In this document: positions 376-17,631 of the stretch, piece by piece
How the letters are laid out: the number at the start of each line of letters is the position of its first letter
Position numbering within the stretch: the first letter of the stretch is position 1
Source of the DNA: Syntrophorhabdaceae bacterium
GTDB taxonomy: Bacteria > Desulfobacterota > Syntrophorhabdia > Syntrophorhabdales > Syntrophorhabdaceae
Length of the DNA: 64,000 nucleotides
Direction: 5' to 3'
Assembly: GCA_963665295.1 (NCBI GenBank)
Contig: OY762209.1
Location: 3,616,001-3,680,000, forward strand
The notes under the pieces: generated by a model
Database searches by the model: none
Told to the model about the DNA's origin: nothing
The model's input: only the letters and a program-made list of their open reading frames with translations
Program-made: the position numbers and the translations under genes

Positions 376-405
376 GCCACGCAAAGAGAGGACAAAGGAG
401 CGTGC

Positions 406-822
406 GTGACGTCATTATTGAGGCGATCGGTTCGATGTAGATGGATGGGAATCATTTCCGCCTTTCTTCTCGTGGCGGTTCTCGCGATACCCGTGGGAGT
501 CCTCCGGGGCGGGGAACCGGCAAAGGCGGACCCGAAAATGTCACAGAGCGGCAGGGATGGCTTCCTTGCCGGCCGGCACACTGCGACGGGCATGGACTGT
601 GCGGCCTGCCACAAGGGTTCCCCGGAAAAGAAACCGTCTATGACCGTGTGCCTCGAATGCCACGGGCCTTATGACAAACTTGCGGCGAAAGGGGAAAAAC
701 TGGAGCCCAATCCCCATATGTCACACCTTGGCGAACTTGAGTGCGACAACTGCCACCACGGTCACAAACCCTCGACGGATTACTGCGCCCAATGTCACGC
801 TTTCGGTCTAAAGGTGCCGTAA
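406..822 (+). CDS. Small periplasmic tetraheme cytochrome c
   Basis: Signal peptide; four CxxCH motifs (CAACH, CLECH, CDNCH, CAQCH); AAGGAG before GTG. Confidence 0.9.
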   Translation: MTSLLRRSVRCRWMGIISAFLLVAVLAIPVGVLRGGEPAKADPKMSQSGRDGFLAGRHTATGMDCAACHKGSPEKKPSMTVCLECHGPYDKLAAKGEKLEPNPHMSHLGELECDNCHHGHKPSTDYCAQCHAFGLKVP

Positions 823-927
823 AAGGGGGTGACGAGGCGTGTGACCGGTGAGTGACCAGGGCCGTGTCTCTTGCGGCGGCTGCACGATCGGTTGCATCGC
901 CCCTTCCTGGTGGTATATCTTACTTGT

Positions 928-1188
928 GTGACCAGGATAGACAAGTTGCTGGCGAGGCTTCTGGCGCGCCCCGAAGACTTCTCCTATGATGAATTGAGAC
1001 ACCTTCTGTTCAGGTACGGTTATGAAGAAGTGAGACCGGGGAAGACATCGGGTTCAAGAGTGGGGTTCGTCAACCGGCGGACAAAACATATTATCCACCT
1101 CCACAGACCGCACCCCGGTCCGCACGTGAAGCTCTACCAGATTGAAATGATCATTGATGAACTGAAGGAAATAGGGGTAATCCCATGA
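928..1188 (+). CDS. hicA: HicA family mRNA interferase toxin
   Basis: GKTSGSRVGF...LHRPHP motif; ATGA overlap with HicB; GTG start at 928 inferred. Confidence 0.85.
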   Translation: MTRIDKLLARLLARPEDFSYDELRHLLFRYGYEEVRPGKTSGSRVGFVNRRTKHIIHLHRPHPGPHVKLYQIEMIIDELKEIGVIP

Positions 1189-1409
1189 AAGACATGATGA
1201 GGCATAAAGGATTTGCAGGGTCCGTCCATTTCATCTCAGAGGAAGAGATATTCCATGGAAAGATTGAGGGCATCCCCGACCTCGTTACTTTTGAAGGGTC
1301 CACTATGGAAGACCTCAGACAAGCATTTCACGAGGCCGTCGAAGACTACCTTGCCCTTTGCAGGGAGGTAGGCAAGGAGCCCGGCGAATCGTGCAAGCTC
1401 CCCTTCTGA
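1185..1409 (+). CDS. hicB: HicB family antitoxin (short, no C-terminal DNA-binding domain)
   Basis: HKGFAGSVHF...HGKIEGIPDLVTFEG...AFHEAVEDYL...GKEP. Confidence 0.85.
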   Translation: MKDMMRHKGFAGSVHFISEEEIFHGKIEGIPDLVTFEGSTMEDLRQAFHEAVEDYLALCREVGKEPGESCKLPF

Positions 1410-1468
1410 CCCAGGCATTGAGCGGGCCCGAGAGAGCCATGATGCCCGACCATCCATTTTGACCTTGC

Positions 1469-3163
1469 TCAGAATCCCGACGAATCTGTTCCTGATAACC
1501 ATTTCTTTACCGGCTCCACGGTCCTTTCCAGTATGCCGGAGTCGAAGGGTGATTCCAGTCCCCCTGTTTTGACCAACTCCAGGAAAGGGGCGCTTCCCCC
1601 TGCCTTGCAGAGCCGGAGGTAATCGGACCATGCCGAACCCCGGTCTTCCTGAAACTTCTCCCAATACTGGATGGCGCAGACCTGGGCCAGGGTGTAATCG
1701 ATATAATAAAAGGGCGATTCATAGATGTGCCGTTGACATTGCCAGAACCCACCCTCTTCAAGATAGGCGTTTCCGGAAAAATCACGGTATGGCAGGTATC
1801 TTTTTTCCAGTTCGCGCCACGCGGCAAAGCGCTCAGCGGGCGATAAGCCCGGATTTTCATACACCACATGCTGGAATTCATCCACCAGTGCGCCGTAGGG
1901 GATGAATAGGAGCGCGTCGGAAAGATGCATAAAGCGGTACTTATCGGCCTCGGGGCCGAAGAAGCGGTTCATCCATGGCCAGGTAATGAATTCCATGCTC
2001 ATGGAATGGATCTCGGCGGCTTCCATGGTCGGCCAGACGTATTCCGGGCATTCGAAATCCTTGCTCATGTGTGCCTGAAATGCATGCCCCGCCTCGTGGG
2101 TCAGGACATCCACATCACCGGATGTGCCGTTAAAGTTGGAGAAGATGAAGGGGGCTTTATATTTTGGTATCCAGGAACAGTAACCGCCGCCGGCTTTACC
2201 GGGACGATTTTCGAGGTCCATCAGGCCTTCGTCGAGCATCCGGTCGATGAATTCCCCTGTTTCCTTTGACAGGGCGTGGTACATTTCTCTGCCCTCCCGG
2301 ATAATCTCTTTCGCGCTGCCCTGCGGTGTCGGATTACCGCTTTTAAAACGGAAAGGCAGGTCGTAATAGTAGAGATGGTCCAGGTTCAGCCGGATCCTCT
2401 GGCCCTCCCTCAGCCCGTTGGCAAGCGGCACAATAGTCTTCAGAATAGCGTTGCGGTAGTCCCGGACCATATTCTCGTCATAGTCGAGGCGGGACATCCT
2501 GAGATAGGCGAGGGGAATGAAATTCTTGAAACCCAGCTTAACGGCCATCCGGTTTCTGACGGAAACCAGACTGTCGTAGATCGAATCCAGCCTTTCGCGG
2601 TTCTCCTTAAGAAATCCGAAATAGGCCTCCGAAGCCGAACAACGGGTTTCCCGGTCTGACGATTCGCGGTATGGTCCAAGACCGGACAGATTCAATTTCT
2701 TTCCATGGAAATCAATTTCCGCCGAAGCGAGGAGTTTCATATATTCCGTGCAGAGCCGGTTTTCCTCGGAAAGATCCTCCATAATTTCCGGTCTGAAGGT
2801 TTTCAGCGCCGACTCGGCCAGGGCAAAAAGGTACATTCCGAAGCGTTTCTCCAGATCTCCCCTGAAGCGGGAGGTGGTGAGGGCGCGGTAGTACTCGTTG
2901 ATCAGGGCCTCGTAGCGTGGAGAGTTCTCGTCGAAAAACGACGACTCTCCGTCGTAAAAGGCATCGCCCGTGTCTATGGTCTGCCGTATTCGTGCGAGAC
3001 TCATGGCCGTATCCACGTCCTCGCGGATAAGGTTAATCTCCTTGATGATAGCGGCTTGTTTCCCGCTGCTCTCGGAATTGATAAAGGCATCTATCTTCTC
3101 ACGGAAATCGGACTCCAGTTTATCGAAATCCGGCCTCTCATAAATCATATCGGAAAACCGCAT
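1469..3163 (-). CDS. M3 family oligoendopeptidase (PepF-like)
   Basis: HEAGHAFQ zinc motif, RPGKAGGGYC, EAAEIHSMSME. Confidence 0.93.
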   Translation of the reverse strand: MRFSDMIYERPDFDKLESDFREKIDAFINSESSGKQAAIIKEINLIREDVDTAMSLARIRQTIDTGDAFYDGESSFFDENSPRYEALINEYYRALTTSRFRGDLEKRFGMYLFALAESALKTFRPEIMEDLSEENRLCTEYMKLLASAEIDFHGKKLNLSGLGPYRESSDRETRCSASEAYFGFLKENRERLDSIYDSLVSVRNRMAVKLGFKNFIPLAYLRMSRLDYDENMVRDYRNAILKTIVPLANGLREGQRIRLNLDHLYYYDLPFRFKSGNPTPQGSAKEIIREGREMYHALSKETGEFIDRMLDEGLMDLENRPGKAGGGYCSWIPKYKAPFIFSNFNGTSGDVDVLTHEAGHAFQAHMSKDFECPEYVWPTMEAAEIHSMSMEFITWPWMNRFFGPEADKYRFMHLSDALLFIPYGALVDEFQHVVYENPGLSPAERFAAWRELEKRYLPYRDFSGNAYLEEGGFWQCQRHIYESPFYYIDYTLAQVCAIQYWEKFQEDRGSAWSDYLRLCKAGGSAPFLELVKTGGLESPFDSGILERTVEPVKKWLSGTDSSGF

Positions 3164-3188
3164 AATCCCTCCTTATGGTTCAGCGACA

Positions 3189-3217
3189 AGTATAATGCGT
3201 AAGCGGGATGCTTTCAA
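3189..3217 (-). promoter_or_regulatory. Sigma70-type promoter of the M3 peptidase gene
   Basis: TTGAAA-17 bp-TATACT on the minus strand. Confidence 0.6.
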
Positions 3218-3355
3218 CTGAAACCGCGCCGACAACCGAAGGTTGTTCCATCGGTCGATAGGGGATTTAGTTGGTCATAAACACTTTTCAAGGGCCAGCA
3301 ATATCATTAACGAGAGAGGATTCTGAATCGAAAGCTTCGTGAAGAAGATCCATCT

Positions 3356-3988
3356 GTGCTCAGCAGTTCATGGATTGCGAAACACGTTCCTGCTGCCTGT
3401 CGTTTCATCTCTAACAACATCAGGACCGAGCTTAATCTTATCGACTGGGATAGAGTGACCATTACTCTCAGCCGTAAGTATCAAAAACGTTGGAGGCTGC
3501 ACGGATATAGGAGTCGTAAAACATATGAAGACGAGGCGGAACTCGATAAAGTTCTCAGTGTGTATCGTGATAAGCTCTATGTTTTTATCGCAATGTCAAA
3601 TAAGAAAGAGGAGGGATTGCGACACCAAATAGCCATCGCCCTCGTGCGGGTTTCGCAGAAAGGGAACGTATTGGCCACCCAGCGGCTTGTCGGCCTTCTC
3701 AGATACATCGTCGACGAATGGATTGACCAGCACTTTTTCCTCCGTCGCTGGCGGGGTGCCGAGAGCGAGATCGATGGAGTGATCGAAGGATGCATTCTCA
3801 GGTATCGATACACCGGCACCTTCTTTGGCTATCTTTTCAAAACCTTTGAATATAAGGCGTGTCGATTGAATGCGTTCCTTTCGCTGGACGACTATCTGCC
3901 TCGGACTGACAGGCGAATAGTCGATATTGTGGGACAGGGTTCTGCTAGCGGCGAGGAAATCAGGATGTACAATTCTCGACAAGTATGA
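3356..3988 (+). CDS. Hypothetical protein, C-terminal half resembles sigma-70 region 1.2/2; 5' end possibly eroded
   Basis: ALVRVSQKGN...F.GYLFKT...LSLDD pattern; reading frame open a few codons upstream of GTG. Confidence 0.5.
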   Translation: MLSSSWIAKHVPAACRFISNNIRTELNLIDWDRVTITLSRKYQKRWRLHGYRSRKTYEDEAELDKVLSVYRDKLYVFIAMSNKKEEGLRHQIAIALVRVSQKGNVLATQRLVGLLRYIVDEWIDQHFFLRRWRGAESEIDGVIEGCILRYRYTGTFFGYLFKTFEYKACRLNAFLSLDDYLPRTDRRIVDIVGQGSASGEEIRMYNSRQV

Positions 3989-3996
3989 AGCAAATG

Positions 3997-4281
3997 CTAT
4001 TTGACCAGTTTGCGATGACGGACAAAAGCGCGCTTTTAGGGGGGCATGGAGGGAATGTTGATAGCGGCGCTTGGCCGAAGGGTTCCTTGATCAACGGGCG
4101 ATAGTCTGAGAACTTCTTCTGTCTATTCGATTGCTTTTTGGCCTGCCTGCCGAACGGCGGCGATGACGAAGTCAGTTATAGACCAATTTTGTAGCTCGAC
4201 CGCACGCTTGAGGACGGCTTGTAGCTCCTTGCTGATGCGCACCACTGAAAGATGCAAGGTCGGAGTAGTGGCTGAGCGCAT
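3997..4281 (-). pseudogene. DUF1778/TacA-like RHH antitoxin pseudogene
   Basis: Manual translation MRSATT...VRISKELQAVLKRAVELQNWSITDFVIAAVRQAGQKAIE*TEEVLRLSPVDQ...*KRAFVRHRKLVK; stops at 4123-4125 and 4036-4038. Confidence 0.75.
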
Positions 4282-4337
4282 GATACATTACTCAACAGTC
4301 CCCGAAGCTATTTTGGAAAAGCAAGCCTGCGCCCGCG

Positions 4338-5279
4338 TTACCTGATGTCCTGAGCGCATTTATCTATTTGCGAAACTAGTGCCATGGCCAAATCCTTAAG
4401 CGTCTTGAATTGAATTAGTGCAGGAGTATTGCCCACATATCTGAGGTGCGCCAGAAACAACGAAGATATGTATATCCAAAAAACATCGTCGTTGTTGATT
4501 GTTAACTTGTCTACCATAGACTCTATGCGTCTGGCTATACTTGGGTGAGACTCTGTCCCGGACCAGCCATCCTTACGTGTGATTACCAGCATAAAGAAGA
4601 ACGCGATTCCGATACCGAATGCCCTCTTTGTAGTAAGCCTGTCTATACTGTATCCGCTTGCCCTTGCGTAATCATCCAGTTTGTCGAGCATCAGGCTCTG
4701 CGCAAATGAATCACACTCGATTTCCTCTTCATGGGCATTGGCTGGCGTGTTACTGTCTGTTCGGAGCATGATGTGTTTCACCTCATGAAGAAAGACATAG
4801 GCACCAGCCATACATATTAAGTCGAATACCACAGAACCCTCTGGATCCGACGGCTTTTGATTCACAGGGTTTGGTACTGCCGCAGGCCACAGGAATAGAG
4901 CAGGGTCATCTACGCGGGACAGTTCATAAACCGAGTTTATCAAATCTCTATACTTGGATTCCCCCTCCGCTTGTCCCGGAATTCCGGAAACCGTGTACGC
5001 ATCGAGCTTACCCGTCCGCAACCTCAACCTGGCAAGTGTTGCTGACCACAAATTCAATGCTTGGTTTGCCGCGAAACCAAGCATCCACATCAGATGCATC
5101 GTTCTTTGCGTGAATTTCACTATGCCAAACGGACCAGCCTCTATGGAGAATCCCGGGCGGTCATCACAACGCAAAAAACAGGCACCAAATTCTGCAATAT
5201 ATTCATTTAGAATTTCCTGATTTTCCGGTACGACCCCATCAAAGAGCATTTTTATCTCATGTTCGGAGTCTACTCCCAC
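4338..5279 (-). CDS. lit: Lit-like phage exclusion peptidase (peptidase U49)
   Basis: PGFSIE, WPAAVPNP, AYVFLHEVKH (HExxH), EEEIECDSFA, KRAFGIGIA, SHPSIARRI, collinear with E. coli e14 Lit motifs as recalled. Confidence 0.82.
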   Translation of the reverse strand: MGVDSEHEIKMLFDGVVPENQEILNEYIAEFGACFLRCDDRPGFSIEAGPFGIVKFTQRTMHLMWMLGFAANQALNLWSATLARLRLRTGKLDAYTVSGIPGQAEGESKYRDLINSVYELSRVDDPALFLWPAAVPNPVNQKPSDPEGSVVFDLICMAGAYVFLHEVKHIMLRTDSNTPANAHEEEIECDSFAQSLMLDKLDDYARASGYSIDRLTTKRAFGIGIAFFFMLVITRKDGWSGTESHPSIARRIESMVDKLTINNDDVFWIYISSLFLAHLRYVGNTPALIQFKTLKDLAMALVSQIDKCAQDIR

Positions 5280-5701
5280 CTTTCCTCCTTATGGCAGCGT
5301 GTCTCGGGCTTCTTAGAGCTTCGGGAATTCTTCCATTTTGAGGGACGGGTCCTGTCTTGCAAGGACGAGGTCCTGGTACTGGCTACGAGGATGGCTTTCT
5401 GGGAACAGAATCCTCGGAGATCAGTTGCTCGGGGTAATAAGAGCAAAGACCCGTTTGCCGACCCTGGTGGCTTCCACCTTTATATTCACGTCGGGCAAAA
5501 TCCCCTGGCTATGTTTCCACCAATTAAGATTTTCGGTATTCTCATGTACCTCGAGGCCATAGGAAGCTTCCCAATACGCATCGGTGATCACCGATTTTTC
5601 CGGAACCTCCATATTTTGGTATATCCCCTCCGTGCCAATATAAGTGAGACACTTCCCACCCAATAGTTTAGACTCTTGGGGGCGGGAAGGAAAGAACGAT
5701 C

Positions 5702-6100
5702 GTGGAAGAAAAGAAATCAGTCATGGCATCACCAAGGGTAGTCCCCGATCCGGAAGTACCGGAAAAGGCAGTTCGCCGGAAATTCACCGCGGCGTACAAG
5801 CTCCGTATCCTCAAGGAGGTGGAGAACTGTACCGGGAAGGGTGAGATAGGGGCGCTTCTGCGCAGAGAGGGACTTTATTCATCGAGCCTCACCTCATGGC
5901 GGCGTCAGGTTCACCAGGGCCTCATCCCGAAAAAGAGAGGACCCGTCACACAAAAGCCTGATCCCCTTATCCGTCGCACCATCGAACTGGAAAAGGAGAA
6001 CACGAGGCTCACCCATAAACTGAAACAGGCGGAGCTCATTATCGAGGTCCAAAAAAAAGTGGCCGAGCTGCTCAAGGGGTCGAGCGAGGAGAAGTCATGA
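5702..6100 (+). CDS. IS3-family transposase OrfA (HTH)
   Basis: RRKFTAAYKLRIL...GALLRREGLYSS; A8G slippery run at 6051-6059 with the -1 frame open into OrfB. Confidence 0.88.
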   Translation: MEEKKSVMASPRVVPDPEVPEKAVRRKFTAAYKLRILKEVENCTGKGEIGALLRREGLYSSSLTSWRRQVHQGLIPKKRGPVTQKPDPLIRRTIELEKENTRLTHKLKQAELIIEVQKKVAELLKGSSEEKS

Positions 6101-7095
6101 ACATCACGCAATCGCTTGCCCATGAAGTGGGTATCCGCCCTGCCTGCAACGCCCTCGACGTATCCCGTGCGGGCTTTTACCGGTGGCAGCATCCGAAAGA
6201 GAAGGAACCTTTGAACCGTCTCTCTCCCTTGGCCCTCTCCTTCGGGGAACGGAACGATGTACTTGATATCCTTCATTCGGACCGCTTCATCGATAAAGCA
6301 CCCCGGGAAATCTACGCGGCCCTCCTGGACGAGAAGAGCTATCTCTGTTCAGTGCGCACCATGTACCGGATCCTTGAAGAAGAAGGTGAGCTGAAAGAAA
6401 GGAGGAGGCAGGTCTCCCGTCCCCGGTACGCAAAACCGGAGATCCTCGCGAAGGCGCCCAACGAGGCGTGGAGCTGGGATATCACGAAGCTCAAGGGTTC
6501 CGTAAAATGGACCTACTACTACCTCTATGTGATCCTCGACATCTACAGCCGCTATGTGGTGGGGTGGATGGTGGCCCACAGGGAACTTGCCGCCCTTGCT
6601 CGCAAACTGATCGCGGAGACCTGCGAGAAGCAAATGATAGAGCCCGGTAAGCTCCTGATCCATGCGGACAGGGGGTCGAGTATGACGTCGAAACCCGTCG
6701 CCCTGCTCATGGCCGATCTCGGGGTCACCAAGAGCCATTCGAGGCCTTCGGTCAGTAATGACAACCCCTATTCCGAATCTCAGTTCAAGACCATGAAGTA
6801 CCGGCCCGAGTTCCCTCAAAGGTTCGGCTCCATTGAGGATGCCCGGGCCTTTTGCCAGACATTCTTCCCCTGGTACAATACCGAGCATTACCATTCGGGG
6901 ATAGGTCTTCTCACCCCCGAGGACGTCCATTATGGAAGAGCGTTGAGGATCATTGAAGGTCGTACGGACGTACTGCGGGCTGCGTATGAAAAACATCCGG
7001 AACGGTTCAAGGGGAGGATGCCGAAACCGGCGTCACTGCCTGACGCCGTCTGGATCAATAAGCCATTATCAACGAGCGATGGCGGGGTACACTAA
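6097..7095 (+). CDS. IS3-family transposase OrfB (rve/DDE integrase core)
   Basis: WSWDIT, IHADRGSSM, SNDNPYSESQFKT. Confidence 0.92.
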   Translation: MNITQSLAHEVGIRPACNALDVSRAGFYRWQHPKEKEPLNRLSPLALSFGERNDVLDILHSDRFIDKAPREIYAALLDEKSYLCSVRTMYRILEEEGELKERRRQVSRPRYAKPEILAKAPNEAWSWDITKLKGSVKWTYYYLYVILDIYSRYVVGWMVAHRELAALARKLIAETCEKQMIEPGKLLIHADRGSSMTSKPVALLMADLGVTKSHSRPSVSNDNPYSESQFKTMKYRPEFPQRFGSIEDARAFCQTFFPWYNTEHYHSGIGLLTPEDVHYGRALRIIEGRTDVLRAAYEKHPERFKGRMPKPASLPDAVWINKPLSTSDGGVH

Positions 7096-7981
7096 ATATC
7101 TGATGGAAGTGTCTCATTTTCATTGACACGTTCCGATCTGCAATCCGGATTGTCTAGCTGTCTCATTACTTGCTACTTGTACGGCCCTTAATTTTGGTTC
7201 GAACGGAATGCCTTCTTCAACGGAGAAGAGTTCCATTTGCTTCAGTTGGGACACCCGCCTTTCCTCCTCTTTCTTCAGGCCATAGTCGGCAATCACCAGT
7301 AGCTGGGGAAAAGGAGCTCTGGAAATGGCTCCTCGGATGGTTGCCTCACGGCTGGCGCTGGGACAAACTGTCTTTCTGAGCTCTTCGATAATGTCGAACG
7401 TCAGCCTTTTCGTTGATTTGGTCCTCGCCAGGAGTTCAGGTAAAAAGAGGGGTGTATAAAACGCAAAATCCCCCGCGATCCTATCAGCAAGCTTCTCTTC
7501 AGGTGCTTTCAAATCTTTCGGAGTTCTCCGAAAAAGTGCAGGCTGGCGGGATTCCGTCAGCACATGAGCCACCTCATGCCATTTTGAAAAATAAGCCCTA
7601 GTTTTTTTGAGCCCTCTACAGTCAATCACGGCTACATACTTCCACATTCTTGTGTTCTTTAGCCTTATCAGCACTGCGTCCGTCATCTTATCCAATTGTC
7701 CGGCTAGGTCCGCAAAAATGAGTTCGCCTTGAGAAGTATAGACTCTGGCCAAGTTGGAGATGTCTTGATCGTCATTGACCTCCTCAAAGCGGATGCCTAG
7801 CGCTGAACTTACAATCTCCAACAGGTTGTCGAGATCCTTGAGTTGGGTGAAAGGGGCTATTATCTTTTCGACTTTTCGGACACAGAATTCACGTATGGCC
7901 TTCTCGGGGTCTCTCAGTCTCTTCAGCCCTAAATCCTTAGCCATCCTAAGGACAACCTCAGAATCCTTTAATGCCTTCATT

Positions 7982-8392
7982 TTACTCCAGATAGTCTTTT
8001 AAACGGTCGTACAAGTCCCTCCAGCCTTCCTTCGTCATTTCCGTCTTCTCATTGGAGCTTCTCTTGGCAACAAGAGATCCGTGCGTGGTGAGGAGTGTCA
8101 CCGTGGACTTATACGAGAGTCCGAGCTCCTCGGCTAGTTCGGAAAGCTCCGAGGGTATTTCTGTAGGCCCACGTTTTTTGTCGTTCTGAATTGTCTCACC
8201 CTTCATTAAGTAATCCAACGAGGTGTTTAGAGTGTTGGCGATCTTCAAAAGATACTCTCCGCTAATGCTTGCCTTGTCATTCTCAATCTCACTCAAGAAA
8301 CTCTTGCTTATCCCAGCCTCGTGGGCAAGTCTATCCTGGGTCCATCCCAACGACTGCCTCAATATTTTGATCCTCTCTCCTGGTCTTGGCAT
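7982..8392 (-). CDS. XRE-family HTH repressor (CapH/ImmR-like)
   Basis: GERIKILRQSLGWTQDRLAHEAGISKSFLSEIEND; 1 nt upstream of the HExxH protease gene. Confidence 0.88.
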   Translation of the reverse strand: MPRPGERIKILRQSLGWTQDRLAHEAGISKSFLSEIENDKASISGEYLLKIANTLNTSLDYLMKGETIQNDKKRGPTEIPSELSELAEELGLSYKSTVTLLTTHGSLVAKRSSNEKTEMTKEGWRDLYDRLKDYLE

Positions 8393-8468
8393 TCCGTCAC
8401 CTGCCTCCTTTTCTCAGTTAACCAAAAACGGGATACAGGTTTTCCCATCTCCATAGATGATATTCCTC

Positions 8469-8497
8469 TTGACATCGTCTTTAGCGAACAATATAAT
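8469..8497 (+). promoter_or_regulatory. Perfect consensus sigma70 promoter for the MBL/E2-E1-JAB operon
   Basis: TTGACA (8469-8474)-17 bp-TATAAT (8492-8497). Confidence 0.85.
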
Positions 8498-8555
8498 ATA
8501 TAGCGAACATATACTCTGATAGCTTCGCTATAGAATATCATATGGCACAGCGAGA
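8482..8555. promoter_or_regulatory. Repeated operator half-sites TAGCGAA
   Basis: TAGCGAACA at 8482 and 8501, inverted TTCGCTA at 8524, degenerate CAGCGAGA at 8548. Confidence 0.65.
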
Positions 8556-8565
8556 AGCCTGTCAA
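8537..8565 (-). promoter_or_regulatory. Sigma70 promoter for the HTH/protease operon
   Basis: TTGACA-17 bp-TATGAT on the minus strand. Confidence 0.75.
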
Positions 8566-8599
8566 GTAAATTTGGGTTCATTGTAAGGAGGAGTTGAAA

Positions 8600-9766
8600 A
8601 TGTCATCAACCATAACATTTTTTCCCGTCGGCAATGGTGATATGACCCTCATAAAGTTGGCCGATAAGACCACGATACTTATCGACATTAACTTACGAGA
8701 AATCGCTGAAGATGAACAGGATCCGAGTTGCGATGTGCTAAAAAAATTAAGGGAGAAGCTTGAGAAAGACCTCGAGGGGAGGCCCTATGTAGATGTTTTT
8801 CTCTTAAGCCATCCCGATCAGGACCACTGTAGAGGTCTAAAGAAGTACTTCCATCTCGGACCGTTGGCCGACTACAACACCAAACCTGATGAAGGAGAGG
8901 AATTGAAGATTGTCATTCAGGAGATGTGGTCCTCGCCCATAGTATTTCGAAGGGCAAGCAGGAATAATCCGCTGTGCGAGGACGCGAAGGCATTGAATTC
9001 AGAGGCCAGGAGGAGAGTCAATCTGTTTAAAGAAAAGGGGTCTGCTCTTGGCGGTGATCGAATCATTATCATCGGAGAAGATGAAAACGGGAAAACCGAT
9101 GGCTTGGATGCGATTCTTGTTAAGATAGATGAGGTCTTCAACCGAATTAACGACAAGATGAGTGACGAAATCTCTATGCGGGTCTTGGCACCGTTGCCGT
9201 CACAAGGAGACTCGGAGGAACAGAATCTCAGGAAGAATCATTCGAGCGTGATCCTTCAACTATCGTTCACCGTTGACGGGCGGCAGGACTCTTGCCTGTT
9301 TCTAACCGGTGGAGATGCTGAAGTATACGTTTGGGAAAAAATGTGGGGCAGAAAAAAGGACAGGCCATCCGACCTCAAATATGATCTCCTGTTGAATCCC
9401 CACCATTGTTCGTGGCACTCGCTCTCTTACGACAGTTGGAGCGAAGACGAAGATCCCCAGGTTAACCAAGATGCCAAATCTGCCCTCTCTCAATGCAAGG
9501 CCGGCGCGTTTATTGTTTCCAGCAGCAAGCCCATCAAAGACGACGAAAGCGATCCGCCTTGTTGGGGGGCGAAACAAGAGTATTTGGATATACTGAGGCA
9601 GGCGAAGGGGCAATTCTATTGTACGGGAGAATATCCTACTGAGAAGAACCCTGAGCCATTGACTGTTGTTGCGACAAAGGAAGGTTTCCAACCACCGTCA
9701 AAGAAAAGCGCATCGATGTCTGCGATCATAGCAGGCAGCACAAGAGAACACCACGGCCATGGGTAA
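8600..9766 (+). CDS. Metallo-beta-lactamase-fold hydrolase of a 6A-MBL-type ubiquitin-like module
   Basis: FFPVGNGDMTLI, LSHPDQDH (HxDxDH), GGDAE, PHHCS; ends ...EHHGHG; AGGAGG before ATG 8600. Confidence 0.85.
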   Translation: MSSTITFFPVGNGDMTLIKLADKTTILIDINLREIAEDEQDPSCDVLKKLREKLEKDLEGRPYVDVFLLSHPDQDHCRGLKKYFHLGPLADYNTKPDEGEELKIVIQEMWSSPIVFRRASRNNPLCEDAKALNSEARRRVNLFKEKGSALGGDRIIIIGEDENGKTDGLDAILVKIDEVFNRINDKMSDEISMRVLAPLPSQGDSEEQNLRKNHSSVILQLSFTVDGRQDSCLFLTGGDAEVYVWEKMWGRKKDRPSDLKYDLLLNPHHCSWHSLSYDSWSEDEDPQVNQDAKSALSQCKAGAFIVSSSKPIKDDESDPPCWGAKQEYLDILRQAKGQFYCTGEYPTEKNPEPLTVVATKEGFQPPSKKSASMSAIIAGSTREHHGHG

Positions 9767-12116
9767 ACAAAAGAAAAGGATCTCTACAAAAGGCGGGGAT
9801 ATACGTATAGCCCCCTCCTGCACGAGAGTCCATCCGGAAGCCGAATGTGCTTGGAAGGTAGTTCGCGCCCACCCATCAGTAGCGGGAGAAGTCCCTTTCC
9901 CTGTATTATTGCGGGATGGAGGCTTCCAGATGACTTTCGACATGGATGTGGCTCTGCCTTCAAGGGCCAGAGCAAGGGGGATAAGTCGAACTAGCGTAAG
10001 ATCCAAGGAACAAATTGAGCTCCTGTTTCCTCCCGCGTATCCATACAGGGCTCCACTAATTTTGTTAAGGCCAGATTTCAACAAATTCCTTGCGCACATG
10101 AACCCCGTACTACGGGTTTCGGGAAGAGACTACGTGTCTCCCTGTGTCTACGAAGGCCCGCTCGAGGAGTTGCTCCACGAAGAGGGCGATGGGCTAAGCG
10201 AGATACTCAATCAGCTTTCAGATTGGCTTAGTAAAGCGGCCATCGACGACTTGATAGACACCAGGCAAGGTTGGGAGCCAATCCGTCGAGATCGCCTGTT
10301 GGGGTGGATGACATACGATCTCTCGCGTATCAGGTCACATGCGGAAGATAGAAGGGGTTCGTCAGTATTTCCGTGCAACGTATGGGTATCGACGGGTCCG
10401 GAAGAGACGTTCGGCAATGTATGGGTAGCGGATGAGAAGAAGATGCGCATCACCCCTCTGCTTGTTCGAAGCTGCTTCATGCCGGACGGTAACCAGAGTC
10501 CCTATGGTGCGTGGTATAGATCCTTGACGATCCTCGCATGGGGCGACTCAACATCGATTGTTGGCCGGTATCTTCCTGAGAGCGTCACGAATTTTCGTCA
10601 GCTATGCGAGAGAGCGAAGGATTATGGTCTCCTTGATGTTTTGAGTAGCGCCATCGAAGATCTCAGGTGGGCCGCAAAAGAGGGATCTCGCGACCTTCAC
10701 CGTTTCTTGCTTTCCGTAATTCTCTGCGTCAGAAGGCCCTGTCACTTAATCGGAGATGCTTCGTCGCTTGAGCTCATTCCATATATTGTTTGGTGTGAGA
10801 CCGAGGAATGTGTCGGCCCATTGGGGGAGCCTGTCATAAGAATCGATGCAGATTCAAAGGTTTTGCCACTAGCGCACCGACACAAGGTGACAAAACGGCT
10901 TCTCCAAAAGATGTCGGGCCGGAAAGTGTCAGTGGAAGATGGTCCTATCGTTTGCATCGGCTGTGGAAGTGTAGGCTCCAAAATGGCCATGCATCTTGCC
11001 CGCTCTGGTTATGAGTCCTTCAAGCTCATAGATAGGGCCAGTTTCTCCCCGCATAACATGGCGCGGCACGCGTTGACGGTTGCTTCGCACGCACCGTTGC
11101 CGAAAGCGGTACTTCTTGCTGAAGAGATCAAGCTGCTCGGACTAAGAGCAGAAGGGGTAAACGAGGATATTGTCGACTTAATCAGTGACCAGAACGAGAA
11201 GCTATCCGGCGTTCTCAACAAAGCACGTTTGATCATCGAATCAACCGGGTCTATGGCAGTCAGAGATGTCCTGGTCTCGCTGCCCCCCCGGAGATTTTCG
11301 GGGAGGTTGATGCACACCATACTTTACGAGGAAGGAACCATAGGAGTTATGGCGATCGAGGGCACCGGAAGAAACCCCAACGTGAATGACCTAATCTTGC
11401 AGTTCTATGACGAACAGGTTGATAACGAACGCCTACCGCCTCTTTCTTCTCCGCAAGCTGGAACAAGACGTTATGAGATTGGACTTGGTTGCGGATCGCA
11501 GACAATGATCATGCCTGATACTCGAGTTTCTTTATTCTCTGCGGGAATGGCTGAGCGGGCTGCCCAGATTCTCGAAGGCAATGACGGCGGCCTCTTTGAA
11601 GGAGAGCTTTGGGTAGGGACACTTGACAAGAAAAGGATAGGCGTTTCTTGGAAACTTTGGAAGATTGGGCAGACAAGAATCTTGACCTTCGCGGGAAATA
11701 ATTTGTGGCACATAAGGATACTTGACCGGGCGGCAGAGCAGATGTCTGTGGAGGTAAAGAAGTGGGCAGACCTGGAGACTGGCGGCGTATTGATGGGCAG
11801 AATCTCGTTATACAACCGGTCATTCAATGTTTCGAGGGTGGTAGAAGCTCCTCCCGATTCTATAAGATCAAAGAACTCATTTGTTCTTGGCACCGAAGGA
11901 CTGATGAAGACGGTGCAACGCATACACGAAGAATCGGGCGGGGTGCTCACCTATGTGGGGACCTGGCATAGCCATCCCAAGGGTGGGGCGGCATCATCCA
12001 TCGACAGGAATTGTCTGGAAGAGCTTAGACGGGTTCGCCTTGGGGTGCCGGCGGTGGGTGTGATTTGGACTCCGTCCGGATTTCGAGCAATTGCAGATGA
12101 AGGCAAACTTGCTTAA
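9759..12116 (+). CDS. E2-E1(ThiF)-JAB fusion protein (Cap2/Cap3-like)
   Basis: E2: FPPAYPYRAP..HMNP...PCVYEG; E1: IGCGSVGS, D.ASFSPHNMARH, IIESTGS, GLGCGSQT; JAB: ETGGVLMG, GTWHSHP, SSID. Confidence 0.9.
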   Translation: MGKQKKRISTKGGDIRIAPSCTRVHPEAECAWKVVRAHPSVAGEVPFPVLLRDGGFQMTFDMDVALPSRARARGISRTSVRSKEQIELLFPPAYPYRAPLILLRPDFNKFLAHMNPVLRVSGRDYVSPCVYEGPLEELLHEEGDGLSEILNQLSDWLSKAAIDDLIDTRQGWEPIRRDRLLGWMTYDLSRIRSHAEDRRGSSVFPCNVWVSTGPEETFGNVWVADEKKMRITPLLVRSCFMPDGNQSPYGAWYRSLTILAWGDSTSIVGRYLPESVTNFRQLCERAKDYGLLDVLSSAIEDLRWAAKEGSRDLHRFLLSVILCVRRPCHLIGDASSLELIPYIVWCETEECVGPLGEPVIRIDADSKVLPLAHRHKVTKRLLQKMSGRKVSVEDGPIVCIGCGSVGSKMAMHLARSGYESFKLIDRASFSPHNMARHALTVASHAPLPKAVLLAEEIKLLGLRAEGVNEDIVDLISDQNEKLSGVLNKARLIIESTGSMAVRDVLVSLPPRRFSGRLMHTILYEEGTIGVMAIEGTGRNPNVNDLILQFYDEQVDNERLPPLSSPQAGTRRYEIGLGCGSQTMIMPDTRVSLFSAGMAERAAQILEGNDGGLFEGELWVGTLDKKRIGVSWKLWKIGQTRILTFAGNNLWHIRILDRAAEQMSVEVKKWADLETGGVLMGRISLYNRSFNVSRVVEAPPDSIRSKNSFVLGTEGLMKTVQRIHEESGGVLTYVGTWHSHPKGGAASSIDRNCLEELRRVRLGVPAVGVIWTPSGFRAIADEGKLA

Positions 12117-12235
12117 CTTAACTGATCCTGCCCCGATGATTGAGCATTGAACGTGAAGGAGGACACGATTCTTTGGTTTCCGAGATCGAAGACTATGGCT
12201 GAGGGGTATATATTTATCTTCACGGAGGCACATAT

Positions 12236-12868
12236 TTGACAAAACCACTGAAGGAACAAAATCGTTGGCAGATTTGGCTCATCGTTGCGGTGAATACGGT
12301 TTTTCTATGTGCCTTAGTGCAAGTCGATGCCATTCAGGCCGTAAACTTCCGAACTATTTTCGAAAGTACCGAGAGCTTTCTGTCGCCTGCCCTTGCAATT
12401 ATTGTTTCGACAGCTCTGAATGGGCTATTAAGCGCCGACAACAAGGCACGCTTGGTGTTCTTACGGTGGCGATACGCTTTACCAGGCCATCGCGCTTTCA
12501 CCCAATACGGCAAGTTCGACCCCCGGATTGACCTGGACAAGCTGACAGAGGCTCAGGGTATAATGGTTCCTACCGACCCCACCGAGCAGAATCAGCTCTG
12601 GTATCGTCTCTATAAGACGGTTGAAAATAGTCCTGCCGTCTTGCAGACCCACCGTGATTTCCTCCTTATGAGGGACTATACCGGCTTGGCGGCATTGTTT
12701 GTTCCGTTCCTTGGGGCGATAGGATTCTACGCTATCGCATCTATAACAACGTCTTGCGTCTATTCTCTCTGTCTCCTGGGGCAGTATTTGGTGGTGCGCC
12801 AGGCAGCCGCGCATTATGGTATTCGGATGGTTGCTACTGTTCTTGCTCAGAAAATGATACACCCCTGA
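12236..12868 (+). CDS. Multi-pass membrane protein, putative defence effector
   Basis: About four hydrophobic segments around a soluble loop (LPGHRAF, DPRID, EQNQLWY, HRDFLLMRD); GGAGG before TTG. Confidence 0.7.
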   Translation: MTKPLKEQNRWQIWLIVAVNTVFLCALVQVDAIQAVNFRTIFESTESFLSPALAIIVSTALNGLLSADNKARLVFLRWRYALPGHRAFTQYGKFDPRIDLDKLTEAQGIMVPTDPTEQNQLWYRLYKTVENSPAVLQTHRDFLLMRDYTGLAALFVPFLGAIGFYAIASITTSCVYSLCLLGQYLVVRQAAAHYGIRMVATVLAQKMIHP

Positions 12869-13242
12869 CTAATACATTAATAACCCATGCCTGACGCAAA
12901 GCAAGTTGTGCAGTAACTGTAGATTGTAAAATACATTTGACTCCTTCTTCGCAATAGGAATGGGGGAACCGTTTTCTTGCTCCGCAATTTTCACAACCAC
13001 GACTGCAGATCATTCGGCTCTCTTTTGCAGGACTTCCGGCGATTCGGAGAAGACTACACCGTCAGCCATGGGTCAATTCAATCCGATGAGAGGGGGTCAA
13101 ATGTATTTGATAATCTATTCCTTTTTTATGCGGGTCCCTACGCGTTCTCTGGATTAATAATGGCCCTGATGTCTCCTCGGTGGGTAAACTTTCGGATAGA
13201 TTAAGACATGCATTTATCGTATGCTTGATGGCAGGAGGGGAT

Positions 13243-13788
13243 ATGAAACCCGAGATAGTTGTTAGTATCTGCGCCGTGTTTATTTCGGTATTGTCGCTCG
13301 TACTTTCGGCGTATTATGGGTGGTGCACCCGAGACCATAATAGGCGATCGGTAAAACCGCTGCCTTATGTGTCACCATCCGATTTTGAGAACTTGATATC
13401 GGTTCGCTTGTGGAACTACGGCAATGGGCCATTGATTTTAAAGGACGTCATTGCACGCGGAAACCAGGATGGTGTGTCAGGTCACCTCGTCGATTTACTC
13501 CCGGAGCTTCCGGACGGTCTGTACTTCAATAGTTATGTTAAGATCTTACGCGGTAGGGCCATCCCACCGGGAGGGAGACTTACTCTTGTCGAATTCAGCC
13601 CCGACGTTAATGATATTAAGGCGATCGCATACCGAGAGAAGCTTCGTGATGCCCTTGGGCGCCTATCTGTTGATGTCGATTTTACGGACATTTATGACAC
13701 AGCCTTTCTTACCTACAACAGAGATTTAACATGGTTTCACAGAACGAAACATGCCAATCGGGCGATGCTGCCCCGAAAACATGGTTAA
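13243..13788 (+). CDS. Hypothetical protein with N-terminal TM anchor
   Basis: MKPEIVVSICAVFISVLSLVLS; LWNYGNGP motif; GGAGG RBS. Confidence 0.65.
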   Translation: MKPEIVVSICAVFISVLSLVLSAYYGWCTRDHNRRSVKPLPYVSPSDFENLISVRLWNYGNGPLILKDVIARGNQDGVSGHLVDLLPELPDGLYFNSYVKILRGRAIPPGGRLTLVEFSPDVNDIKAIAYREKLRDALGRLSVDVDFTDIYDTAFLTYNRDLTWFHRTKHANRAMLPRKHG

Positions 13789-14137
13789 CATAGCTGAAGC
13801 ATTCCTCCCTTTTTTCTCGATAGGCGCTCCACTTGGAAGGCCGCGAATGCTGAATCTCGCCGTTCTTCGGACAACTTCCACGCTGTGAAATGGATAAAAG
13901 CATCTATGTTATGTTCGACAGCTCCACTGAATACACTATTCCGGGCAATGGCTTTGTCAAGCTCTAAGAATTCCTTCTTACGACCTCCGACGCGTCCTTC
14001 GTTGGCCAAGTGGAGATCAGCGTAAAAATAGCCACTGCCAATTCGATTCATTATTGTCAAATTCAAAATACGTTCGGTCGAGATAAGGCTGCGTTGTGTG
14101 AACTGGGAGGGAAAGGTGAGGAAATACGGGTGGTTAT

Positions 14138-14223
14138 GGGGAGGGGGGATCGGGAAGGGGAGGGGTTTAGAATATTAAACGGGGAAAGAGGGCGGTCGGG
14201 AAAAAGCGGGGAGAGGGGGAGGG
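14138..14223 (+). repeat. G-rich low-complexity tract with two canonical G-quadruplex motifs
   Basis: GGGGAGGGGGGATCGGGAAGGGGAGGGG (14138-14165) and a six-G-run cluster (14181-14223). Confidence 0.6.
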
Positions 14224-14425
14224 ATGCGAAACGAAGCAGGACAAAAAGAAATACAAAAGAGGGTGGGACGAGAATTCTTGGAGAGGGGCGTGTCAAAGTT
14301 TGGCACGGCACTGCATGTGAGGCGCCTCCGATCTGTTCTGCTCACTCCGGCGCAGGTCTTCACGAATTGCACCAACACGGTTCTACCGCTCAGCGCTGAA
14401 GCAAATCGATTTTGTCGTGACGGAT

Positions 14426-14693
14426 TCAATCGCCAATCGTGTGGCGTCCCCTCAATAACGTTCCTCCCCCCCTCTCCTCCGTGACCAGTTCGCTCATAGG
14501 CTTGCCGGCAACGCGAATGGAGTCCCTGAATTTCTTCTGATCCGCCAATATCTCCTTTCTTTCGGAGGATACAGGAACGAGGCGAGCCACACGTTTGCCA
14601 TGGCTGGTAATGATCACCTCCTCACCGGCTATGACCCGTTCGAGAAGAGAGCTGAATTTGGCCCTTGCTTCTTTCACTCCAATCTCCAGACAT
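14426..14693 (-). pseudogene. Phd/YefM antitoxin, orphan, with damaged start and aberrant C-terminus
   Basis: (LEIG)VKEARAKFSSLLERVIAGEEVIITSHGKRVARLVP; ATG out of frame by 1 nt; no toxin downstream. Confidence 0.7.
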
Positions 14694-14947
14694 CCTCCCG
14701 TTCAATGGCCGACGTGCACCATCAGGAAATAATCCCATGCTCTATGCGAAGAATCAGTTGTTCCACTTCTCGGGCGCCGCCGTCAGCCTGGAGTACATCG
14801 ATCGCGATAGCGCCACCGAGACCGTGCTGTGGGGTCCGGACATCCGCCGATAGCGCGGCGAATCGTCGATTATTTTCTTGGTTTACAGGTGACCGGAATA
14901 TTGATTAAACATAGTCTGGAATAACAGTGAGCTTAGACTATGAGGCC

Positions 14948-15751
14948 TCAGGCAATATCGATTCTTCGGTCGAGATACCCGACCTGTTCTTCATAGTAGG
15001 AATCCCAGTACCCGCCATACCGACTCCTGATGAAACTCGAAAACCTTTCGGCCATTCCCCGTTGTTCGTGCTTATCGGTTAGAATAAAGTAGGCCCTGGG
15101 ACTATATGGCCAATAGCGAAGGGCAAATATCTTGCCGCTTGGGTTGACATGTTCTCTCAATTGGTCAACCCTTGCCCGAATCTGATTCTCATGAGTCCCG
15201 TTTCGGTTGAGGTGGTGATAAATGACTGTGACATCTTTGTCTTTTGTCAATATGGACACTTCTGAGTAATAGGTAAACTTTCCCGCTTTGAGCTGACTTA
15301 TCTTCGAGCATGAAGGTATTTCCAGACCGTTGTCTGGATCAAGAAATATTACGTTGCACCCAGATACCTTCAAGGCGGCCCTCCTCAGCCAGCGCTTTCT
15401 GTTAGCTTCCCTTTCTCCCTTGTCCTTTTCGCGTTGGGAAGGATATTTTAGATGAAAATCGAGCGGTTCAGAAAAATAAACGGTATTCCCGGGAAGTAGT
15501 CCTGCTTTTTCAAGAGCTGTGACGGAGCGATGACCACGCACTATCTCCGACAACTTCTCGCAAAGGTCATCGTCGCAGCACCGAAAGGCACGGTTCGTTG
15601 AATAGTCTACGTGCCGACCATCGTCGTTGTGGGATTCATCAGGGAAGAGGTACCAAATTACCCCTAATCGGTTCTTGGGATCGCTCAGCAAATAACGCAG
15701 GAGCAAGAACTTCCCGAAGTCTCCGACATCCCCGGCATATCTGTTTTGCAT
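14948..15751 (-). CDS. Hypothetical protein, possible SAM-dependent methyltransferase fold (RlmJ-like motifs)
   Basis: RYAGDVGDFGK near the N-terminus and VIFLDPDNG. Confidence 0.6.
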   Translation of the reverse strand: MQNRYAGDVGDFGKFLLLRYLLSDPKNRLGVIWYLFPDESHNDDGRHVDYSTNRAFRCCDDDLCEKLSEIVRGHRSVTALEKAGLLPGNTVYFSEPLDFHLKYPSQREKDKGEREANRKRWLRRAALKVSGCNVIFLDPDNGLEIPSCSKISQLKAGKFTYYSEVSILTKDKDVTVIYHHLNRNGTHENQIRARVDQLREHVNPSGKIFALRYWPYSPRAYFILTDKHEQRGMAERFSSFIRSRYGGYWDSYYEEQVGYLDRRIDIA

Positions 15752-15807
15752 ATCCTCTTGCCACCTTTATTTTAAATTACCACCAGCCGCAAACACCAAG
15801 CCCTCGT

Positions 15808-17631
15808 TTACTCCACTGTCACGCTCTTTGCCAGGTTCCGGGGCTGGTCTACGTCGGTACCGCGGAAGTTGGCGATGTGGTACGCGAGGAGTTGGAGGGG
15901 CACAATCGCGAGTATGGGCTGCAACTCGTAAATGGTCTCCGGGAATACGAAGGTTGTCTCCACCCTTGACGCCATTTCGTGGTCATCGTCGTCGGTAAAG
16001 AGCAGGGTCTTGCCTCTTCTGGTGATTGCTTCTTCCATGTTGCTGCACGTCTTCTTGTACGTGTGGTCTCTGGGGGAGACGACGACGATAGGCAGATTTT
16101 CATCTATCAGAGCGATAGGTCCGTGCTTCATCTCTCCCGCCGCATACGCCTCGGCGTGGATATAGGATATCTCCTTCAGCTTGAGGGCGCCTTCCAGGAC
16201 CGTGGGATAGTTGATACCTCTCCCCAGGTAGAGGAAATCTTTGTAATTCATGTACTTCCGGGCGAATTCCTCCACTTTGGAAGCCCCGTCGAGAATAGTC
16301 TGTATCTTGTGAGGCACCTTCTTGATCTCTCCGATAAAATCCCTCACTTCATCAGCATTCATGATGCCGAGTTTCCTCCCCACGTGAAGCATGAGGAGAT
16401 AAAGGACGGCAATCTGGGTGGTAAATGCCTTTGTGGAAGCGACGCCGATCTCGGGCCCGGCATGGGTGAATATCACTCCGTCGCACTCCCTCGCAAGGGT
16501 GCTTCCGAGGACGTTGCAGATGCACAACGTGTAAGCTCCGTTCCTTTTGCCTTCCTTCATGGCGGCGATGGTATCCGCTGTCTCTCCCGACTGGGAAATG
16601 AGGATGAGCATGTGGTCTTTGGTGATGATGGGATCCCTGTACCTGAACTCGGACGCGATGTCCGTCTCCACGGGTATCCGGAGGTTTGCTTCAAACATCT
16701 GCTTGCCTATCATACACGCGTGGTACGAGGTGCCGCAGGCGACCATCCATATTTTCGTTATATTGCCGAGATCGGGCAGTTCCAATTCCTCAAAATCGAC
16801 CTCGCCTTTTTCTTCCTTGATTCTGCCGATAAGGGTCTCGGAAATGGCCCGTGGCTGCTCAAAAATTTCCTTGAGCATAAAGTGCCTGTAGCCGCCCTTT
16901 TCGGCCATGGCTCCGCTCCAGTTGACCTCATGGATTTTACGCTCCACGGGCAGACCGTTCGTCGTGGTGAGGGTGAAACCGCCGTTCTTGAAAACGGCCA
17001 TGTCATTATCTTCCATGAATATGAACCGGTTCGTCCGGTTGAGGACAGCGGGCACGTCGCTCGCAATGAAGTACTCGCCGACCCCCACACCTATGACAAG
17101 GGGACTCTCTTTCTTTGCCGCGATCATGGTCCTTTCGCCTTCTCTTATTATGCCAAGGGCATAAGACCCCTTCATCTCACCCAGGGACGCTCTCACGGCT
17201 TCGACAAAGTCGAGACCTTTGTCCAGGTAGCTCGTGATGAGATGGGGAATGACCTCGGTGTCCGTGTCGGAAAGGAACTCGTGACCGGCCTTCTTCAGCT
17301 TCTCTCTCAGCTCCATATAATTTTCCACGATGCCGTTGTGGACCACAACCACGTCGCCTGCGCGATGGGGATGGGCGTTTCTTTCGGAGGGGGTTCCGTG
17401 GGTCGCCCACCGCGTGTGGGCGAGGCCGAGGGACCCTTTGAAGGAGTCCGTGCCGCACACCTCTTTACGCAACTCGTCAACCTTGCCCTTCTTGCGTCCT
17501 ATCTCTATCTTGCCTTCGTGCCATATGGCGATCCCCGCCGAATCATATCCCCTGTATTCAAGTCTTTTCAAAGCGTCAATGAGCATATCGCATGCTTCTT
17601 CGCTACCCTTGTAGCCGACTATCCCGCACAT
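15808..17631 (-). CDS. glmS: Glutamine--fructose-6-phosphate transaminase
   Basis: MCGIVG, HTRWATHG, C-terminal PRNLAKSVTVE. Confidence 0.99.
   Translation of the reverse strand: MCGIVGYKGSEEACDMLIDALKRLEYRGYDSAGIAIWHEGKIEIGRKKGKVDELRKEVCGTDSFKGSLGLAHTRWATHGTPSERNAHPHRAGDVVVVHNGIVENYMELREKLKKAGHEFLSDTDTEVIPHLITSYLDKGLDFVEAVRASLGEMKGSYALGIIREGERTMIAAKKESPLVIGVGVGEYFIASDVPAVLNRTNRFIFMEDNDMAVFKNGGFTLTTTNGLPVERKIHEVNWSGAMAEKGGYRHFMLKEIFEQPRAISETLIGRIKEEKGEVDFEELELPDLGNITKIWMVACGTSYHACMIGKQMFEANLRIPVETDIASEFRYRDPIITKDHMLILISQSGETADTIAAMKEGKRNGAYTLCICNVLGSTLARECDGVIFTHAGPEIGVASTKAFTTQIAVLYLLMLHVGRKLGIMNADEVRDFIGEIKKVPHKIQTILDGASKVEEFARKYMNYKDFLYLGRGINYPTVLEGALKLKEISYIHAEAYAAGEMKHGPIALIDENLPIVVVSPRDHTYKKTCSNMEEAITRRGKTLLFTDDDDHEMASRVETTFVFPETIYELQPILAIVPLQLLAYHIANFRGTDVDQPRNLAKSVTVE

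Follow-up and report, generated by a model that had tools for sequence, protein, structure and literature searches.

A probable 6A-MBL anti-phage cassette with a CapH/CapP-type switch, a recurrent membrane partner and an insertion in capP

Does a single switch in the genome of a Syntrophorhabdaceae bacterium drive an undescribed, two-armed defence system, or does it belong to a known system that stands beside another defence gene? The question is raised by the window analysed here, a stretch of 64,000 nucleotides (assembly GCA_963665295.1, contig OY762209.1, positions 3,616,001 to 3,680,000), in which two divergent sets of genes share one control region. Rightward lie a metallo-β-lactamase-fold (MBL) enzyme, a fused E2-E1-JAB protein and a membrane protein, hereafter labelled TM210; leftward lie an XRE helix-turn-helix (HTH) protein, an HExxH peptidase and a Lit-like peptidase. 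A first reading made from the letters alone, hereafter the sequence-only reading, had joined all six into one damage-inducible composite.

Family scans of the open reading frames (ORFs) of the window, using Pfam, PADLOC and NCBIfam release 20 with curated cut-offs, lead to a narrower answer. With a probability of roughly 0.78, the core is a five-gene mobile cassette, with capP and capH on one strand and the MBL gene, cap2_3 (the E2-E1-JAB fusion) and the four-helix membrane gene on the other, and belongs to 6A-MBL, a known anti-phage system, here with control of the CapH/CapP type; Lit appears to be separate, and capP is broken by an insertion sequence (IS). The gene inventory of the sequence-only reading was sound: all of its ORFs were found in their places, and the motifs PCVYEG, GLGCG, WHSHP, SHPDQDH, HEVAH and HEVKH all occur in the translations. 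Its statement that no CD-NTase is present also holds among the ORFs scanned in 1-19700.

A five-gene core cassette

The MBL gene (8600-9766, + strand) encodes a 388-residue enzyme that scores 441.1 bits (E 2.7e-132) with NCBIfam NF058524 (6A-MBL_enzyme), whose cut-off is 220. The next gene (9759-12116, +) overlaps the MBL stop by 8 bases and encodes a Cap2_3-type fusion of 785 residues, which reaches 520.7 bits with NF058523 (6A-MBL_cap2_3; cut-off 320). Both proteins pass the curated cut-offs, which bears out the earlier assignment of the pair to 6A-MBL. Within the fusion, we identified Prok-E2_A at residues 37-180 (E 1e-20), ThiF at 396-504 (E 1e-10) and Prok-JAB at 658-755 (E 3.2e-9). Eight of the 9 homologues aligned retain the E2 and E1 cysteines, and GCGSVGSK, ETGG and WHSH..S..D are invariant in the alignment, as are the E, HxH, S and D of the JAB domain; the sequence match of the fusion to Cap2 structures is weak. 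The closest relative of the fusion in the genome collection, at 52% identity, is found at locus L007.

The AlphaFold2 model of the MBL enzyme has a predicted local distance difference test score (pLDDT) of 90 and a predicted template modelling score of 0.90, with a disordered tail at residues 369-388 that ends in His-Gly (HG). Residues H71, D75, H76, D239, H268 and H269 are invariant in the alignment. A fold search of the PDB puts the ComEC MBL domain first (9ic4, E 1.1e-13), with Pce and RNase J next, so that, judged from the model, the enzyme is likely to be a nucleic-acid or phosphodiester hydrolase.

The tail itself takes few forms. In the 120 closest cluster representatives, the C terminus is Gly in 100 (His-Gly in 97), HG followed by 1-11 residues in 18, and truncated in 2; the same two forms, HG and HG with an extension, are seen in 11 MBL homologues taken from loci. 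One would expect these forms if the terminal Gly of the enzyme were adenylated by the E1 domain and precursors were trimmed by the JAB domain. Conjugation of a system's own enzyme by an E2-E1 fusion is described for type II CBASS (signalling against phages by cyclic oligonucleotides), Pycsar and 'MBL' pathways by Ye et al. 2024, and the C-terminal Gly of the MBL enzyme is likely to be the conjugated end, as with Cap2. If the tail fills this role, no ubiquitin-like gene is expected, and the absence of a separate one, which the sequence-only reading had found worth remarking, needs no further explanation.

The leftward core genes are capH (7982-8392, − strand), which encodes a CapH-like XRE HTH repressor of 136 residues, and capP, described below. 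All five genes recur in the same order in G152, a genome from another genus of the same family, as capP (intact, 347 residues), capH, MBL, E2-E1-JAB and TM210. DNA identity between the two is 76.6% over 7136-12856 and 79% over 5416-5625. The two sequences cease to be homologous at the stop codon of capP and, on the other side, where TM210 ends; the flanks are unrelated, and pepF and glmS, the housekeeping neighbours in the window, lie on other contigs in G152.

An insertion sequence within capP

The sequence-only reading missed that an IS lies inside capP rather than between genes. The element is a 1,510-bp member of the IS3 family (5626-7135, +), whose orfA (5702-6100) and orfB (6097-7095) match rve and IS3 transposase families in Pfam and NCBIfam. 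Its ends are set by those common to the copies across the genome; terminal inverted repeats lie at 5631-5656 and 7105-7130, and a 3-bp target duplication, ATC, stands on both sides at 5623-5625 and 7136-7138. The 5′ part of capP (7136-7980, −; about 282 codons) carries the HEVAH zinc motif and is 83% identical to the N-terminal part of G152 CapP; the annotated ORF (7120-7980) runs on to 7120 through IS-derived codons. Exactly beyond the IS the peptidase frame resumes, into 5621-5424. This 3′ fragment (5421-5625, −) comprises 66 codons, a stop at 5421-5423 and one ATC copy at 5623-5625, has no internal stops and is 70% identical to the C terminus of the intact G152 protein, in which both parts are contiguous in one 347-residue ORF. 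The CapP-like protein of the window is without its last 67 residues, which include several conserved positions.

The 5.5-Mb genome holds nine further full or near-full copies of the element (one of them 40 bases short) at 100% identity, ten in total, together with one 50-base fragment, and these identical copies point to a recent burst of transposition. Contigs of public DNA runs break at the IS ends, depth over the element is about 12-fold higher, and no contig among them bridges the site as an IS-free allele would. A recently spread IS3 element has truncated capP here, so that the switch is probably locked off. A 135-residue ORF at 5259-5666 (+), antisense to the 3′ fragment and the IS end, has no family match and is most likely not a gene.

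Lit as a neighbour in a variable island

The Lit-like gene (4338-5279, −) encodes a peptidase U49 of 313 residues with an HEVKH motif. It passes the Pfam cut-off for Peptidase_U49 (38.9 bits versus 23.9, E 9.6e-10) and matches PADLOC Lit (E 1.7e-15); with NCBIfam Lit it aligns over residues 6-309 of 313 (E 4.1e-50), but at 170.7 bits, below the equivalog cut-off of 274. In the sequence-only reading this gene formed a second arm: one CapH/CapP switch would drive 6A-MBL rightward and co-induce Lit leftward as a translation-targeting abortive-infection arm, giving a composite not yet described. The layout speaks for such a unit, and to that extent against a five-gene core, in that Lit is co-directional with capH and capP and starts 141 bp after the capP stop, with no terminator or promoter consensus predicted in the gap; read-through from capP into Lit could have occurred before the IS arrived. 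G152 also has a single-gene defence protein at this place, a PD-Lambda-3_B protein (E 3.5e-132) 138 bp after capP, which could hint at a variable slot. The wider comparison tells against the two arms. The boundary of homology at the capP stop leaves Lit outside the shared cassette, and Lit is found in 0 of 13 genome loci and 0 of 80 metagenome loci related to it (0/93), the latter having been found with the TM210 family. Other capP homologues are followed by a recombinase, or by a convergent helicase and transfer genes. A search of 400 other genomes of the phylum yielded a single further Lit homologue, a solitary gene on a conjugative element; its neighbours are a serine recombinase and type IV secretion genes, and no HTH/peptidase pair accompanies it. 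The IS, moreover, now puts 1.5 kb of antisense transposase genes between Lit and the promoter. A two-armed system is, on balance, unlikely. The co-occurrence that had been proposed as a check is borne out for the membrane gene, which recurs with the module elsewhere, and fails for Lit in the loci covered.

From its genomic setting, Lit appears to be an independent, single-gene defence neighbour in a variable defence island downstream of glmS. The island spans approximately 3200-15800, directly downstream of glmS (15808-17631, −), with glmU and tatC coming after it. In a genome from the same genus, the match to the window starts only at the glmS stop, and the island has no counterpart there. 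The position downstream of glmS is the classic Tn7-type attachment site. Four further ORFs of the island, at 3356-3988, 13180-13788, 14010-14399 and 14948-15751, match no family.

The probable regulatory pair and its control region

Setting Lit aside, the five-gene reading still requires that the HTH/peptidase pair control the MBL operon. Upstream of the operon, and divergent from it, stands the XRE HTH gene, after which comes the gene for the HExxH peptidase. The HTH protein matches HTH_3 (E 2.3e-18) and PADLOC capH (E 1.1e-11) and is 79% identical to its G152 homologue; the peptidase matches PADLOC capP weakly (E 6.6e-6) and no Pfam family. In other genomes the family of the peptidase adjoins DUF3892 genes and E1/JAB operons, both of which are among the contexts of CapH/CapP in Lau et al. 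2022, and, according to Ye et al. 2024, CapH and CapP accompany 31% of Bub operons.

Between the two arms lies a shared region of 207 bp (8393-8599). A predicted rightward promoter, TTGACA-17-TATAAT, occupies 8469-8497 (12/12 consensus match) and faces a predicted leftward promoter at 8565-8537 (11/12); no other sites in the scan came closer to consensus than these two. Both predicted promoters are overlapped by TAGCGAA repeats, of which two start at 8482 and 8501 and a third, inverted, occupies 8524-8530, and a ribosome-binding site, AAGGAGG, lies at 8585-8591. The region is 93% identical to that of G152, compared with 77% for the whole cassette, and the promoters and repeats are all kept there save one base of the rightward −10 element (TATAAT here, TATACT in G152). 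The conservation also bears on the start of the MBL gene: ATG 8600 is conserved in G152 and TTG 8594 is not, and, from this comparison, ATG 8600 is most likely the true start.

Several observations weigh against this reading of the pair. Pfam Peptidase_M78 matches none of 6 members of the peptidase family (best E 0.19), sequence and profile searches of the PDB return no match to CapP or IrrE, and no Cys is seen between HExxH and the next invariant Glu, the site of the switch in CapP; an hhalign comparison with a canonical M78 peptidase aligns over the HExxH region only (E 0.0056). The promoter scan as a whole found 7 sites against 8.2 expected from shuffled sequence. Because the regulators of 6A-MBL loci vary (WYL, a sigma factor with an M78 peptidase, or none nearby), we infer control by the pair from position alone. 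Locus L007 (4974-6724), for instance, has no divergent HTH pair; a sigma-70-type factor, a 210-residue protein of no assigned family and a short M78 peptidase stand co-directionally upstream of its MBL gene and may form a different regulatory module.

These observations leave some room for the view that the pair is a generic regulator of the ImmR/ImmA type from a mobile element, which does not control the MBL operon and adjoins it through shared carriage, as the weak CapP match, the mobility of the cassette, with its differing contexts in two genomes, and the many 6A-MBL loci without such a pair might suggest. That view is quite unlikely, given that the pair travels with the operon as one conserved unit whose intergenic DNA is the best conserved part and whose repeats overlap both predicted promoters, and that published accounts describe the same arrangement in 6a, CBASS and Bub operons. 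CapH control of both arms, the leftward regulatory genes and the rightward operon, is a prediction well supported by position and conservation. The switch of the sequence-only reading thus stands in part: the pair is CapH/CapP-like, divergent from the operon and joined to it by a conserved region, and the Lit arm falls away.

A recurrent membrane partner

TM210 (12236-12868, +) encodes 210 residues of an unnamed family. Its AlphaFold2 model (pLDDT 83.5) is all-helical, with four long helices whose hydrophobic stretches are confirmed in the sequence; the loop between helices 2 and 3 is conserved and basic, and is probably cytoplasmic. Scans with Pfam, PADLOC and NCBIfam gave no match, a fold search of the PDB gave none either (best E 0.9), the clusters that a protein atlas returned were all unnamed, and none of 522 clusters of relatives carries a name.

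TM210 follows E2-E1-JAB in 6 of 13 genome loci, which is 6 of 9 distinct ones when L009-L013, 99.9% identical, are counted once, and also in G152. Of the 80 metagenome loci, 6 are too short upstream to judge; in the remaining 74, the gene directly upstream of TM210 is a PDC-M48B-type, ComEC-like MBL in 60, an E2-E1-JAB or JAB gene in 9, a WYL regulator in 1 and an ORF without family match in 4. Three annotated plasmids show the layouts MBL+TM, MBL+E2-E1-JAB+TM+MBL, and MBL+E2-E1-JAB divergent from WYL+TM. By these neighbourhoods TM210 is a regular partner of the ComEC-like MBL branch, with or without the ligase, and not the extra effector that the sequence-only reading had proposed; its role could be that of an anchor, a regulator or a membrane effector. 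Prediction of a complex between the MBL enzyme and TM210 scored 0.00, which is evidence neither way. That TM210 merely travels along as a passenger, or is a small defence gene in its own right, without functional tie to MBL or Cap2_3, is very unlikely: although it is missing from 3 of the 9 distinct 6A-MBL loci, and so is not obligatory, falls outside the two-gene definitions of NCBIfam and of Iyer et al. 2006 and begins 120 bp after cap2_3, it adjoins an MBL-fold or E2-E1-JAB gene in 69 of the 74 informative metagenome loci, accompanies MBL or E2-E1-JAB in all three plasmid regions viewed, in differing gene orders, and is 75% identical between the window and G152, like the other cassette genes (69-84%).

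The two settings of TM210 differ in the MBL tail. Among TM210-paired MBLs without a ligase, 0 of 18 end in HG and 14 of 18 end in VE[DE]Y[DTS], with -VEDYD in 10 and variants carrying E or T in the rest, one of which has an additional S. In these PDC-M48B-type MBLs encoded before TM210 (L029, L032, L040 and 11 others), the C terminus bears an acidic motif that is conserved, PF..VE[DE]Y[DTS], and may serve for docking.

Two candidates were set aside. Lys6 of TM210 was considered as a conjugation acceptor; it is invariant in 44 of 44 aligned relatives, yet most family members seen in context have no E2-E1-JAB. A 243-residue gene of L007 was rejected as a distant TM210 (hhalign E 0.22).

Further arrangements were seen around these genes. 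Some 6A-MBL operons have behind them a second MBL gene, of the PDC-M48B type, at L014:10873-11904, L007:11693-12568 and L113 (a B. glumae plasmid) 6725-7804, in two cases right after TM210. At L114 (an Acinetobacter ursingii plasmid; 881-6651), a DUF6338 protein follows E2-E1-JAB, and the TM210 homologue follows a WYL regulator on the divergent arm, an order of WYL and TM genes also found at L083. In metagenome loci L088 (2409-9609) and L056 (110-6655), longer operons, with a PDC-M48B MBL and TM210 as their last genes, stand behind a CapH/CapP pair; the operon of L088 also holds an MBL-like gene and an E1/JAB gene, and that of L056 a phosphoesterase and a 593-residue protein of no assigned family. 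A HATPase_c_3 protein of 626-641 residues, with a weak PADLOC match to MzaB, is encoded upstream of PDC-M48B and TM210 pairs at L040:5119-6999, L070:654-2579 and L077:5222-7147, and DndB-like genes lie upstream of such pairs at L044 and L073. The near-identical loci L009-L013 are an 18-kb stretch that carries HipBA-like genes and a JetD-like gene besides a 6A-MBL pair, and the records that contain it bear the names of five different alphaproteobacterial genera; either the stretch is a very recent mobile element or the assemblies are mislabelled or contaminated.

A proposed mode of action

In the working that we propose, by analogy with related systems, CapH would hold both arms off by binding to the TAGCGAA repeats at the two facing promoters, which these repeats overlap. 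Single-stranded DNA from damage or infection would activate the CapP peptidase, CapH would be cut and the operon freed. The E1 domain of Cap2_3 would then adenylate the C-terminal Gly of the MBL enzyme, which would pass through the E1 and E2 cysteines to a target and so become primed, and the JAB domain would trim short extensions past His-Gly and undo the conjugation. The ComEC-like MBL would be the nucleic-acid-cutting effector, with TM210 as its regular partner, whether that means anchoring or regulating the enzyme or acting on the membrane as an effector.

A broader proposal, to which we give about even odds, is that a ComEC-like MBL and TM210 form a widespread two-gene defence module. The 6A-MBL system would be its 'type II' form, in which Cap2_3 is added and the tail changes from -VEDYD to -HG for conjugation of the enzyme, as type I relates to type II CBASS, and TM210 would be an unrecognised third component of 6A-MBL. 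If so, the current two-gene definitions omit TM210, whether effector or membrane partner. Taken alone, the locus is an unremarkable case of a system already described, which an IS has disabled, and the comparative by-product could be the more useful outcome: the data point to a conserved membrane partner of 6A-MBL and, through the His-Gly tail as a mark, to the enzyme as what is conjugated. The contrast between tails, -HG with the ligase and -VEDYD with the membrane protein alone, offers clean mutants, and the intact cassette of G152 and the IS-broken one of the window make a natural on/off pair for CapH/CapP control.

Comparison with known systems

The Lit protein of the E. coli e14 prophage is a peptidase U49 that cuts EF-Tu. 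The neighbour of the cassette resembles it in aligning over its full length to the NCBIfam Lit model and in having the HExxH motif, and differs in scoring below the equivalog cut-off (170.7 versus 274).

The closest match to the core is 6A-MBL. Under the name '6a', Iyer et al. 2006 defined it as a two-gene operon of an E2-E1-JAB protein and a specialised MBL, and a 2026 review credits the anti-phage activity of 6A-MBL to van den Berg et al. 2024. As in that system, an MBL-fold enzyme is followed by an E2-E1-JAB fusion in overlapping genes, both above the curated cut-offs. Beyond the two-gene definitions, the window locus adds a CapH/CapP pair, its capP broken by the IS, and a conserved four-helix membrane gene. 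Even this fuller layout has a precedent in the Methylobacterium oxalidis '6a' locus, for which the text of Lau et al. 2022 and the legend to its Fig. 6F list CapP-like and CapH-like proteins, one hypothetical protein, a metallohydrolase, E2-E1-JAB and, last, another hypothetical protein. The two loci, matched by description only, share all of these, including the trailing hypothetical gene, except that one more hypothetical gene stands before the metallohydrolase there. The sequence-only reading had not recognised the combination as a described system; going by this list, the core architecture is not new, and what is modestly new is the partnership of MBL and TM210 together with the contrast between MBL tails. 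We found no published MBL-TM210 pairing in the literature searched, which did not cover van den Berg et al. 2024.

PDC-M48, a PADLOC candidate system whose component B is an MBL, is linked to the cassette through TM210, homologues of which directly follow PDC-M48B-type MBLs (E down to 1e-105) in most of the metagenome loci. The MBL of the window is set apart from that type, matching PDC-M48B weakly and over residues 6-84 only (E 1.5e-6), against E 1e-83 to 1e-105 for true members, which end in -VEDYD rather than -HG and come without E2-E1-JAB.

The last comparison is with type II CBASS, which comprises a CD-NTase, Cap2, Cap3 and an effector. There, as proposed here, the system's own enzyme has its C terminus acted on by a ligase (E2-E1) and a peptidase (JAB), the last gene often encodes a membrane protein, and CapH/CapP or WYL regulators are optional. 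The window has no CD-NTase, so that no cyclic-nucleotide signal is expected; in its place stands a ComEC-like hydrolase, served by E2, E1 and JAB domains that are fused in one chain.

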